Source of the DNA: Lingula anatina
Taxonomy: Eukaryota; Animalia; Brachiopoda
NCBI GenBank assembly: GCA_051362555.1
Contig: CM120641.1
Coordinates: 18,972,001 to 19,036,000, forward strand
Length of the DNA stretch: 64,000 nucleotides
Direction: 5' to 3'
Shown here: positions 29,545 to 52,530 of the stretch, piece by piece
Layout of the letters: every line of letters begins with the position of its first letter
Numbering within the stretch: the stretch's first letter is position 1
The notes under the pieces: model-generated
Databases searched by the model: none
Told to the model about the DNA's origin: nothing
The model's input: the letters and a program-made list of their open reading frames with translations, nothing else
Position numbers and translations under genes: made by a program

Positions 29545-32500
29545 CTATCTTCTCAACTTACTGATGACAGCAGCTCTGTCTCTGAAAACAAGGGATGATA
29601 TGTGTAAAACACTCTTATTTAACTTAAAAATTGCTTTCACATAATATTCTGAACTTCATAAATAACAAACACTGAGATAATGTTTTTAATTAATGACAAA
29701 ATGGTGATCATTTGAAATTAAATTTTTCATTCCTTTCATGTATAAAAATAGATTAAGTTAGACATACAAGATATTTAAATACTCACTGACAAAAAGATAA
29801 AACAGAGGTATGTAAATTAGGTAATGGTAGATTAATGTCTAAAATATTTACTAAAAAAATCATCAGACAACAACACATTATGCAAGGTATGGAATTTTTC
29901 TTTCCTCTTGTATGAATATTTCATAACATTGAAATTAATATGCTGACTGCCAGCTGTTTAAAACTTACCTCTTTCTTGACTTCTTTGTTTTACTTGTGCT
30001 TTGGTCTAGGCCCTCTTCTTCTTGCAAGTTTGAAGTGCTGGAAAAAGACAAAATAGTAGATGAATTATAAAACATATGTATCCTTAACCAGCACTGGGAA
30101 TGCAATTTCATAATCCAATTATTTCAACACTATTTATTCCATTCAACAAATCTTAGAATAGGAAGGAAAATTTTAGCTTTCCCTATGTTAATAATTGTTA
30201 TTTGTTATTGCAAACAGCAATGTGAGTGTGGTACATAGGGACCAGACTTTATTTTTTAAATTTTATTCATTACCACCTAATTTCAACAGTTTCCACATTG
30301 GGCAATGTCCCCGAGTCATGTGTTGGTAACTCTGATCCAATCCTGTCCATACTATGTAAAGACAGGCTGGAGACACCAGAATTGAATTCCTCTTCCTCCT
30401 CCTCCAATCTTTGATTTTCAGTAGGTGGCTGAAGTGAGATGTCCTGTGAAATACTATAAGGCTCCACCTGAGATTCTATACTTTCAAAGTTTTGGCTCCC
30501 TATAGTAGGTGATGCCCACATTTTACCAGTCTCTGACTTTTCCCCTCCCTTGAATTCATCAAAGTCACCATTTTGGTCAAAAATTGCTGACTCATTGTTC
30601 ATTCTTTCAATGGACGTGTCAAATCTAAGACTTCCATTTGAAGATGCGTCATCTCTAACTTCACTGTGATTTGTTCTAGAATAAAGACAAAATAAGAAAT
30701 TTATTGTTTTATTGAATACCTAAAATCTGAGCAATCTACAGCTACTTTCACAAGGACACCATTTAAGAGTTGACCTAACAGGGGCCACTCTGAAATAAAG
30801 AATGAGTCCTTTAGCATTGTAGAACTACTTAATTATGTTTGTTACATTAATCTTACTTACATGTAATATACAGCATGATGTGCAAGCAACCAACTACCAG
30901 CTAGGTTAAAGTCATAAACATAATCATGCTTTCAGCATAAAAAACATGGTCACTACAATTTAAAAGAAAAACACTCAATCTTTAGACAAATATAATTGCT
31001 ACATATTTACAATGTTCCTTCCTTGATGTCCGCTCTGTGGTGTAAGTCATCTGATTGGTTGTCACTGTCATGTGACCTGTCTGCCTCCTGTGACCTGTCT
31101 CTAGAACTGCTTCTTGAGGCAAGAGAGGGACTGCTTCCAGAAAGGGGCTCTCCTACTGTTTTTGTGAGTATACTGTGTAAAAATAAATACAAAATTCAAT
31201 TTCTATTTTTCTCTATGGTTTGTCTCTTTCCTTTGGCAAATGATTTTTGCCCATATAACTGCCTGTACCTTGATGATCAAAAACAGCTAGTTAAAGGATA
31301 AAAACATATAGTGCTCCTTCTTTCCACATATGGATAAAAAAGTTTAACCTTTCTTTCATACTAGGAATGATTTCATAAATACAAACTAGTTTGTAAATGA
31401 ATGTGGAAATATTTCAAACAGAATACTGAATACATTTAAATATGTATATAAGCAAAGCTACCTGAGATCAATATCTGGTGTTTCTTGGTCAGACATGGCA
31501 TCGGGTATCTCAGCTTCTTCCAAAACAGAATCTTCAGTAACTTCAATATTGTTGGTAGAAATGAATTTTTTGGCCCATTCTGGCATCTCTCCCTTTTTGC
31601 TCTGTTCAACCTTCTTCTTGTATTTGCTTGGTATTCTGGGGAGTTCCACACTCAAGCTATCTTCTAACAGAGACAAAATAAAAATATATATTAAATACTG
31701 TCTGCATAATTCTTAATATCCCTGCATAGTAAATATTATAGCAAAAGCAACCCAAGAAAATCTATACAGCCATCAGATTTAATACTGCATTTTGTTCCAG
31801 ATACAGTCTTGGTAAAAGGCTGAAAAGGGAAAATAAAATTTCAGGTTCTGAAATCAATTACAATGTAAGTTTCCTTGGAATCAGACATCACTAGATGTAA
31901 ACAAAATTCCCACTTGATGAAAATGTGATTTCATATATATATCTATCTTGCCTATTTCACAGTGAAAAAAGTAATAATCCTGAAACTTACTTCCCCCTGT
32001 TTCCTCATTCTCAGCATTTACATTTAACTTGCCCTGAGTTTCTTCACTTTCTTCTTCTTCCTCCTCTTCATTCAGCTCTGGCATTATAGTGATCTAAAAT
32101 ATTTTACCATAGCTTAATATCTTTACCAAATCACACAAGTCATACATGTATGTGCAATCCCTTGGTTATTTTTCATTTTTGGTTCAGATCCATCAATTGT
32201 CCCTAAAAATATTCTCATGCAAACTACTTAAACATCAAAGATATGTTAATTTAAAGCAGAAGAAAGGCTGATCACATTAAAAAGTCTTAAGCATATGAAT
32301 TGGTTTCCATGTGCATAACATTAAAAATGATTATATGTAACAATATTTCAGTGAACTGCTTTAGTGGAGAATCATATTAACTGCCTACTAAAGAAAGTCA
32401 TTCATCTACTTATCAACTATAGCCCTACAAAGAATTTATACATGACTCACAAAATCAACCTTATCAATAATGAATAAACAAATATTCATTCAATAAAAGT

Positions 32501-50500: not shown

Positions 50501-52530
50501 GCAATGTCAATGGTGTACATGAAGAGGCAGAGCAACTCCAAGACAAAAACCACCCAGTGTACCCTTTTGGAAGAAAGCAGATTTTATATAAAAATATTAC
50601 TAAATTCACAACATGTACCTTTGATTTTACTGTACACTATAAAATAATTCATCAAATTGTAAACAATTAGCATCTGCCAATAATATATCCTATCCTCAAA
50701 ATACCATTTGGAAAAAAAACAGACAGCAAAGATGGCAAATATACAGATGGTATTCCACATTTAAGACAAATCCATATATCAACAAGGCATGCATGATGAT
50801 ATAGTATTCATTGAACTTTCTCAGTCACATTGGAACCATTATATGTTTGCACATTATAATATTGATAAACAAACTGAATGATTCATGCACAATTAGACTT
50901 TTACTTTTTTTCTTAATAGAAAATTTAGAAAATTCAGGCATATATCACTTTCAAAAAAAGATCTGAGATATTACGTAAATCTATGTCTACAGTGCCATTT
51001 AAAATATTTCTATTACATGATTTGCATGTGAACACTAAAGATAAAATAAGCAAATTATAGTCCTAATTAAGCCAGCAAAATGTCACTAACTGTGCTGGTA
51101 CCGTTACTGTGCAATTTGCATTATATACGTAATACAAAACGACTTACTGCCCTGGTTTAACATGTGCTTGTGTAGGCTCAAAAAACACCAATGCTGTGTG
51201 TAAAAGTATGAAAGCATACATGACTCTGTTGAACCATTTGCTGTCTATGATGGCAAAACACCTGAAATATGAACAAACATACTTGATGGCAGTTGTCACC
51301 TTCATCAACTTATTTAGTGTGGAGCCCAAAGAGGAAAGTCTTCTCCATACGAAACATTTTATTTTTCAGTACATCTTGACTCTCTCTTTATGGGCTATAT
51401 GGTATTGTATATGTTTTAAATATACATATAGTCCATTTAATAAAATCATTCCAAAGTGAACAGCTATGCACTTATTAACTCACCGTCGCTGCCATTTTGG
51501 TTTAAAAATGGCTCTCGCCTTTCCATAAGCACCTCTGAAATAAAGATAATATTCTGAACATATAACCAAAACTCTGAAAGTGTGCTGCCTGCAAAGCTAC
51601 TGTTCATACACCCCCTGATCATGTCTTTCAAAAAATGTTAATAAAAATGAATTACCATTTTAACTTGCACTGGAATGAAAAATTTGGATCCATAACATTG
51701 GTAGAGGCATAAATAAATGAATAGAATTGCACACTGTTGGGAGAATTAATTCAACACTTCAGTTTGTTGAACTGTGTATCTCCTAACTCTATGGCAACTG
51801 AATTCAACATGATATAAGGCAATGCAATCATTGAGTAAAACCCCTCTTACTGTAGCTTAGCCATGAAACTGAAAAGGCATCCTGCACCCACTGCTGCACA
51901 GGGTTCCTACGTACCATGCACATTTTTTTTCATTTCTGCAAAAGGTGAAAATCCTCAACTGACCAAACTGAATAGTACTCAATCTCTATTACCTTCCCCT
52001 CAAGGCATCATCCACATGTGCAGCCACCAAAATGAGATTCTTGTCTTTGCCACTTAACTGTTCAAACTGCTGTGAAATGCTGTCTGTCTGTTCAAATAAA
52101 ATACCAAAAGCACACCATTAAAAATAGTAAAAAATATAGGCTGCAGTTTTCATGTTTTGTCCTGTTCATGTTAAGTAAAAATGCAAGGAATCCATGTTAT
52201 GAAAAACTTGGTTTAAAAACACCTGAGAAAATTTTATCAATTGCTTTTTCTGTGTAAAAGACTTTTTATGTGTACTACTACATTCATGCTTACCCCATTC
52301 ATGTGTGGATACAAAGGAATAGCAGGAGACAACAAGCCAAGCAAATCAAATTTCTCCTTAGATGAATTCTTGTGAAGATGAATAGAACCAGCCTTCTGGT
52401 ATTCTGTCTCCTCCGCTGGAGATTCACACATATTTGTTCTATGATTCAGCGGCAGTTTATCATCAGTTTTATTCTCCATGCTATCTTCACTATCATCATG
52501 TTTGGTTGTTTCCATGCTTTCTTCTTTCAT
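29545..52530 (-). CDS. Two-pore channel (TPC/TPCN)-family protein, 2x6TM with EF-hand linker and long C-terminal tail containing an SH3 domain, ~1442 aa, ~36 coding exons
   Basis: Phase-consistent GT-AG exons (-): 52530-52294, 52087-51993, 51534-51484, 51261-51148, 50563-50432, 50135-50060, 49176-49066, 48522-48359, 47995-47929 (LFVLLTTENYP), 47406-47285 (DLMVPAY..S6), 47041-46891, 46591-46451 (EF-hand DHDQNNVID), 46073-45970, 45749-45659, 45352-45057, 44903-44793, 40455-40315 (FQLVTTSNWHDMM), 39833-39740 (NLFVAITIEAF), 39563-39507, 39023-38919, 38762-38679, 38371-38143 (SH3), 37912-37740, 37004-36922, 36449-36428, 35435-35364, 34822-34769, 34579-34521, 33859-33778, 33362-33324, 32093-31991, 31663-31462, 31172-31011, 30675-30277, 30037-29969, 29581-29545 (TAG). 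The N-terminal AAHVDDALRGR resembles the TPC pre-S1 helix. The start codon and small tail exons are less certain. Confidence 0.8.
33456..33560. repeat. (CA)n microsatellite
   Basis: About 50 perfect CA units. Confidence 0.98.
34282..34496. mobile_element. MITE-like TIR element; partial copy at ~48625-48693
   Basis: GACTGCACTCCCACAGATTTTAGATCAATC ... GATTGATCTAAATCTATAGGAATGCAGTC imperfect TIRs. TSD is ambiguous (TTT or CTTTG). Confidence 0.65.
35620..36060 (+). mobile_element. Degenerate LINE ORF1 fragment (L1/Tx1/CR1-type RRM-CTD), antisense in a TPC intron
   Basis: Translates to LQARSMRDNLIFTGIKE ... ITFERAHRIG ... RSIVAKF ... FGVNKQFSKEINEKRKLL ... KAVLVVEKLF, which are typical LINE ORF1p motifs. 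Frame is disrupted and no ORF2 is seen. Confidence 0.75.
37885..38280 (-). other. SH3 domain coding segment of the TPC-like gene, split across two exons
   Basis: IKVISAYRKKNDSQLDLHMGDEVTILEKSGDFVKGTARGKTGWFP|AHCVKEL fits SH3 spacing (ALYDY..ELsF..GD.I.V...W..G...G..G.FP.NYV). Confidence 0.8.
40763..43679 (-). mobile_element. Helentron/HINE-like element carrying a 146-bp satellite array
   Basis: subTIRs ATTGTACCACCAGC (40800) / GCTGGTGGTACAAT (43663), 5' hairpin 43645-43674, GC-rich (CGGAGCCGG)-type microsatellite ~43583-43620, 3' hairpin GAGGCGATACCGCCTC, and a CTAGTTT end at ~40763-40792. Confidence 0.8.
40970..42680. repeat. Tandem repeat, 146-bp unit, ~11.7 copies
   Basis: The AGGTCAAAGGTCA anchor recurs at 41116, 41262, 41408, 41554, 41700, 41846, 41992, 42138, 42284, 42430 and 42576, an exact 146-bp spacing. 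Copies are highly similar. Confidence 0.97.

Follow-up and report, generated by a model that had tools for sequence, protein, structure and literature searches.

An expressed SH3-bearing two-pore channel of Lingula anatina and its relatives in animals and choanoflagellates

Two-pore channels (TPCs) have relatives in unicellular eukaryotes that form the TPCR clade, reportedly set out by Rahman et al. in 2014. Elsewhere too, in the passages cited, TPCR is a unicellular clade with a filter resembling that of Cav channels (PMC4278181, PMC6259924, PMC8490419). The pertinent section of a 2026 review counts three TPC paralogues in animals and reports that TPCR genes were not found there (PMC12839299); the count of three also appears in excerpts of two other papers (PMC7312350, PMC11085791). 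Here, we describe a further channel gene, located in a window of 64,000 nucleotides (nt) from the brachiopod Lingula anatina (assembly GCA_051362555.1, contig CM120641.1, positions 18,972,001 to 19,036,000; coordinates below are positions within this window). The gene is the ortholog of the RefSeq locus LOC106174392. It is a single spliced gene that encodes two six-transmembrane (6TM) repeats joined by an EF-hand-like linker, together with an SH3 domain; two homologues are modelled with a TPC fold, and the clade to which it belongs lies apart from TPC3.

The gene model, built from splice signals, comprises 36 exons on the minus strand (52530 to 29545), with AG/GT at all introns and one open frame of 1442 amino acids (aa) that is 98.5% identical to RefSeq isoform X3 of LOC106174392. 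Searched with the SH3 exon, a set of 52 candidates yielded a single protein, that of the same Lingula locus. Raw short RNA reads of the same species, in the sense expected of a minus-strand gene, cross all 12 introns at 33600-40900, between the pore II exon and exon 29 (4-30 reads each, read samples X1 and X2), including those between the last segment of repeat II (IIS6) and the SH3 (10-21 reads in X1, 4-30 in X2). All six introns of the distal tail at 29000-33430 are likewise crossed (7-36 reads each, X1-X3), and the intron between these two stretches is seen as loose read ends matching exon 29. Such reads document adjacent junctions, and a full-length molecule is not proven by them; introns 1-16 of the 35 rest on the RefSeq match and on contiguous homologues. 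Reads are almost absent from X4 and X5, which come from a different study, and few in X7, so expression appears to differ between samples. With Pfam, the RefSeq protein shows Ion_trans twice (E 2.3e-53), in line with the two 6TM repeats seen by hydropathy in one chain, and both SH3_2 (30.7 bits) and SH3_1 pass the cut-off; the SH3 exon frame alone scores 30.1 bits for SH3_2 (cut-off 21.8). The sequence-only reading of the window had proposed one phase-consistent chain from a TPC-type core through an SH3, with both domain types expected from profiles, and this holds, with reads across 18 of the 18 introns examined.

The window departs from RefSeq at its stop codon and in exon 29. The stop at 29547 belongs to a single allele; Gln is encoded in 20 of the 30 reads (X1-X3), which adds 9 aa as in RefSeq. 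In exon 29, 15 extra nt (33854-33840) are missing from both the RNA reads and RefSeq. Several further features of the locus deserve mention. A second RefSeq locus on a short scaffold, LOC106162785 (P0005/P0007), falls in the same 90% cluster and is probably the other haplotype. Stretches bearing splice signals at about 57630-57800, 54370-54395 and 53050-53240 on the minus strand may be 5' untranslated exons of the channel gene. The 4.3-kb intron preceding the pore II exon holds a tandem array (40970-42685; 11.8 copies of a 146-bp unit, 93% matches), AATAAA/ATTAAA hexamers lie inside the linker introns, and interspersed repeats in introns at 34290-34470 and 40760-40900 attract RNA reads by the hundred that match in part and stem from other transcripts.

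The architecture is not a local fusion, and it is shared by eight animal phyla and by choanoflagellates. A word-limited family search with residues 90-960 returned 39 proteins, 28 of which (query included) match at E<=2e-164 with 36-56% identity to the query region and span the eight phyla; a precomputed SH3 is present in 25 of these 28. Named members represent homoscleromorph sponges, cnidarians, a brachiopod, an annelid, a nemertean, echinoderms, a hemichordate, amphioxus and tunicates. Vertebrates, arthropods, molluscs and nematodes are absent from the named matches of this word-limited search, most of the 150 profile-search representatives being unnamed. In the databases the members are labelled uncharacterized, TPCN1, Nav or Cav, and such mislabelling would hide them from ion-channel surveys. 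An ESM Atlas cluster, probably that of the LOC106174392 protein itself, has 70 members with SH3_2 in 96%. In a profile search of 1.84 billion representatives, the next tier scores 352-425 bits; ten of its matches were examined, comprising eight choanoflagellate proteins, one second Lingula paralogue and one unnamed protein. SH3_2 passes the Pfam cut-off in four of the eight, from Mylnosiga, Codosiga, Salpingoeca infusionum and Hartaetosiga, and the other four show no Pfam SH3_2. The paralogue (P0064, XP_013412227) has 983 aa, an SH3 and a Nav label, with Ser in filter I and Ala-Gly in filter II.

To place the family, trees were computed from the channel core only, the careful tree holding 26 of 67 rows, with the others omitted to shorten the computation and two of these as long branches. 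In this tree the animal clade and the SH3-bearing choanoflagellates group at 95/94, the SH3-less choanoflagellates join them at 100/100, and TPC3, Lingula's own included, forms a separate clade at 100/100; the same picture emerges from all 67 rows with FastTree and from two quick trees. Because the SH3-bearing choanoflagellates are the sister of the animal clade, the SH3, judged by the core tree, predates animals. Two ENA/Logan proteins, P0035 and P0068, occupy a long branch within or adjoining the animal clade and carry the tail motifs with no clear SH3; in P0035 none is detectable.

We consider this clade the probable animal branch of TPCR. Its nearest relatives are choanoflagellate two-domain channels with an acidic filter I, Salpingoeca included, and TPCR is described, in the excerpts cited, as unicellular, with a Cav-like filter and members in Salpingoeca (PMC4278181, PMC6259924). 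It is also conceivable, if unlikely, that the SH3-bearing two-domain channels of choanoflagellates and animals are distinct from published TPCR too, and represent a further unnamed lineage in the manner of diatom TPCL or Toxoplasma TPC. At least two related clades, SH3-bearing and SH3-less, occur in choanoflagellates, more distant TENYP-type proteins fall outside both, and the placement relative to TPCR rests on descriptions, reference sequences being absent from the trees.

How might such a channel conduct? The Glu of filter I lines up with its counterpart in the Cav3.3 filter. In a 27-row family alignment, which includes three unnamed proteins grouping with animals, 26 of 27 rows carry this Glu, where TPC3 has Ala (111 of 118 rows). 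At the filter II position of TPC2 Asn653, Ser occupies 20 of 27 rows, including the LOC106174392 protein. The channel's filters TTENYP/TTSNW stand against TTANxP/VVN[NQ]W in animal TPC1/2/3, and lack the T-A-N and V-N-N/Q signatures. IIS4 lacks the multi-arginine voltage sensor of animal TPC1/3 and has a single basic residue in every family row versus 3-5 in all 116 scored TPC3 rows; in the IS4-S5 linker, seat of the basic PI(3,5)P2 site of animal TPC1/TPC2 and here compared by eye, animal members have Lys and often His where TPC3 has three Arg, and choanoflagellates have more. An EF-hand loop spans 12 residues, with ligands at 1, 3, 5, 9 and 12, and this pattern is intact in loop 2 of 16 of 27 rows. 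A dileucine-type sorting motif at residues 59-64 is not kept in the family alignment.

The SH3 itself is unusual. The canonical PxxP-binding surface consists of both Tyr of ALYDY, the Trp, the Pro and the last Tyr. In the family the first ALYDY Tyr is absent from all 27 rows (one has Phe) and the last Tyr is replaced by His in 20; the Trp is found in 18 rows, with Phe in the LOC106174392 protein, and the Pro in all 27. Because two of the usual surface aromatics are lost, an ordinary scaffold role is only putative for the interaction module proposed by the sequence-only reading, which is a genuine SH3. The tail after IIS6, given there as about 680 aa of low complexity, is indeed long, at 697 aa, and that description is incomplete, since the tail has conserved elements, namely a basic helix preceding the SH3 and two motifs following it, one of which lies at the position of a TPC1 module in two models.

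These models are AlphaFold predictions for two homologues, amphioxus P0015 and the Lingula paralogue P0064, and both show a TPC fold and an SH3 barrel with five strands (predicted local distance difference test, pLDDT, 85-94). TPC structures match them at Z 29-32 and four-domain channels at 22.5 or less, all TPC entries ranking higher; the top Foldseek match is AtTPC1 (TM 0.76 of target). Against mouse TPC1 (6c96), the alignment of P0015 runs to residue 1077 (Z 29.1, root-mean-square deviation (rmsd) 4.7, 645 aligned) and that of P0064 to residue 885 (Z 30.3, rmsd 4.5, 646 aligned). These residues belong to the post-SH3 helix of each model and lie opposite residue 795 of the TPC1 chain; one AtTPC1 entry also aligns as far as model residue 860. 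Because the alignments run past the SH3 to this helix, the SH3 looks inserted between IIS6 and a TPC1-like C-terminal module of the channel, rather than appended. The first post-SH3 motif is also weakly present in the SH3-less choanoflagellate proteins (hhalign E 0.0015).

On balance, the expressed product of the gene, which combines two 6TM repeats, an EF-hand-like linker and an SH3 predicted to sit within the C-terminal module, probably works as a homodimeric, Ca2+-permeable, weakly selective and voltage-independent cation channel. By analogy with TPCs, a homodimer would present a Glu/Ser/Glu/Ser filter ring. In TPC2, according to the passage cited, Asn653 determines Na+ selectivity (PMC6424560); Ca2+ permeation and loss of Na+ selectivity would be expected because this ring replaces the Ala/Asn of TPC2. 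Voltage gating would be lacking because IIS4 has a single basic residue, and opening may instead come from the cytosolic side, through Ca2+ at EF loop 2 or through lipid. The C-terminal region of TPC1 is described in the same source as wrapping the EF domain (PMC6424560). The post-SH3 helix may likewise clamp the EF domain, with the SH3 and the basic helix preceding it looping out of the clamp and tying the channel to a partner by a non-standard surface. We infer dimer, permeation, gating and partner link alike from sequence and models.

Several observations weigh against this proposal. Glu also occurs at the filter I position in one of the 118 TPC3 rows, the Lingula paralogue P0064 has Ser in its place, and filter II has Asn in 5 of 27 rows. 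TPC2 is voltage-independent with two IIS4 arginines, so charge counts are a guide only. EF-hand_7 scores 23.2 bits in the RefSeq protein, under the Pfam cut-off of 30, and EF loop 2 is degenerate in the LOC106174392 protein, with Asn at 12. The trees contain no named TPC1, TPC2, plant TPC1 or TPCR sequences. The models are of homologues (mean pLDDT 61 for P0015 and 76.5 for P0064) with a post-SH3 helix at pLDDT ~55-85, the structural aligner reports end points only, and the alignments of the two models share sequences. In profile-profile comparison, neither family tails nor clade-B tails match TPC3 tails significantly (E 0.23).

More tentatively, and as a possibility to which we give much less weight, animals from sponges to amphioxus and tunicates may have kept a two-domain channel of the TPCR lineage with a Ca2+ filter, a stand-in for the two-domain ancestor of Cav and Nav. 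The insertion of an SH3 into the gating clamp before animals would let a partner gate or place the channel, with ciliary or flagellar cells as a plausible setting and with later loss in vertebrates and model protostomes. The phyletic range, which we take to resemble that of CatSper, suggested a sperm or flagellar role; this found no support in the literature searched, and stays a lead.

The protein could also be a non-conducting or auxiliary channel-like scaffold that works through its SH3 and tail, or could conduct only as a heterodimer with another TPC. A nearly uncharged IIS4, fewer basic residues in the IS4-S5 linker than in TPC3 and the lost filter Glu of the Lingula paralogue would suit such a role. 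We nevertheless regard it as improbable: from sponges to tunicates, conservation is among the highest in the two pore helices, the filters and the S6 segments, as would fit a working pore. Still less probable is that the gene arose by duplication of TPC1, TPC2 or TPC3, evolved fast and acquired its SH3 within animals. In favour of this, the fold resembles that of TPCs, AtTPC1, TPC3, TPC2 and TPC1 sharing the top rank, some members are labelled TPCN1, and TPC1 and TPC2 are missing from the trees; but the channel is only 21.8% identical to Lingula's own TPC3, solved TPCs score 103-120 bits with the family profile against 352-425 for the choanoflagellates, and the SH3 is already present in choanoflagellates. 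Finally, the idea that prediction has fused two neighbouring genes, for which one might cite short reads that cover adjacent junctions rather than whole molecules and the hexamers in the linker introns, is largely refuted and very improbable, as all junctions between pore II and the SH3 are covered by reads, no site at 33600-40900 is listed at which many molecules end, and the architecture recurs across phyla and in choanoflagellates.

Table 1. Parts of the channel gene, by position in the window
Feature	Position	Strand	Remarks
Coding span	29545..52530	-	36 exons, 1442 aa; ortholog of LOC106174392 (XP_023932785-88)
First coding exon	52294..52530	-	Begins family-conserved N-terminal motif GLLxPA, 52344-52321
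Repeat I (6TM)	47285..51261	-	S4 FRCLR 49161-49147; filter I TTENYP 47946-47929, Glu at Cav filter position
EF-hand-like linker	46451..47041	-	Second loop 46552-46517, Asn at position 12
Repeat II (6TM)	39740..46073	-	IIS4, one Arg, 45166-45152; filter II TTSNW 40424-40410
NLFVAITIEAF (IIS6)	40316-39803	-	Exon 39833-39740 holds the end of IIS6
Optional 12-nt micro-exon before pore helix II	43775..43786	-	In RefSeq isoforms X1/X2
Three small linker exons, IIS6 to SH3 exon	39563-39507, 39023-38919, 38762-38679	-	Reads span all four flanking junctions
Acidic stretch, basic helix, SH3	37893..38371	-	SH3 38275-37893, two exons, intron 38142-37913
Conserved post-SH3 module (WRR..GDMTVMN..E helix)	34769..35435	-	Predicted at place of TPC1 C-terminal module
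Second conserved tail motif EMPxWxxKF	31563..31592	-	Lies after the SH3
Last coding exon	29518..29581	-	Stop allele 29547; Gln allele reads 9 codons on

The window holds other genes as well. Upstream of the channel gene and on the same strand lie 3' exons of a PARP gene (60428-64000; Pfam PARP and PARP_reg). An uninterrupted frame (5020-8850, minus strand; 1276 aa) that encodes EF-hands and WD40 repeats stands in intron-rich surroundings and may be a retrocopy or else a single exon of unusual size. Coiled-coil-like, low-complexity frames at about 18750-19930 and 26220-26740 on the plus strand probably belong to a gene ending downstream of the channel gene; two of the frames, searched against Pfam, gave no match.

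The lineage is real, expressed and conserved and, so far as the literature searched shows, apparently undescribed. In that literature, which leaves most subscription journals outside its coverage, we came upon neither an account of an SH3-bearing two-pore channel nor a characterised orthologue with this architecture, and locus and accession terms for the family do not occur among the literature matches listed. A fourth lineage in eight phyla alters the three-TPC inventory of animals and the protist-only view of TPCR, as given in the passages cited (PMC12839299, PMC7312350). Clones from Ciona, Nematostella, amphioxus and echinoderms offer a way to ask if Ca2+ selectivity of the Cav kind was already a property of two-domain channels before the four-domain duplication, and the Lingula paralogues, with Glu versus Ser in filter I, form a natural pair for the same question.

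Like animal TPC1, TPC2 and TPC3 (6c96, 6nq0, 6v1q), the channel has a 2x6TM fold, an EF-like linker, a pre-S1 helix and a C-terminal helix at the TPC1 position; unlike them, it shares only ~15-23% identity and has different filters, a single charge in IIS4, an apparently inserted SH3 and ~700 aa of tail. TPC3 in particular forms a separate clade, and Lingula has its own TPC3 besides. Plant TPC1 (AtTPC1; 7fhn, 7tdd) shares the EF-hand linker and the absence of a Na+-selecting Asn in filter II, whereas it has 733 aa, no SH3 and, according to the section cited, voltage gating through IIS4 (PMC12839299). Diatom TPCL and Toxoplasma TgTPC, compared by description, are also divergent two-domain clades outside TPC1-3, TPCL with an acidic filter residue and TgTPC with ~1500 aa; in the excerpts cited, however, the Asp of TPCL lies in filter II and EF-hands are missing (PMC11085791), and TgTPC has its extra length in the N-terminus and linker, again with no EF-hands (PMC8490419). 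TPCR, likewise compared by description only, is reported absent from animals in the passage cited (PMC12839299), and the excerpts mention no SH3 for it; yet it shares with this channel the two-domain plan and the Cav-like acidic filter residue, and the nearest relatives of the channel are choanoflagellate. The subfamily proposed by the sequence-only reading is distinct, its 28 proteins sharing one architecture and its clade set apart from TPC3 in the core tree; what was also put forward there as a candidate "new system" is instead a variant among two-pore channels.

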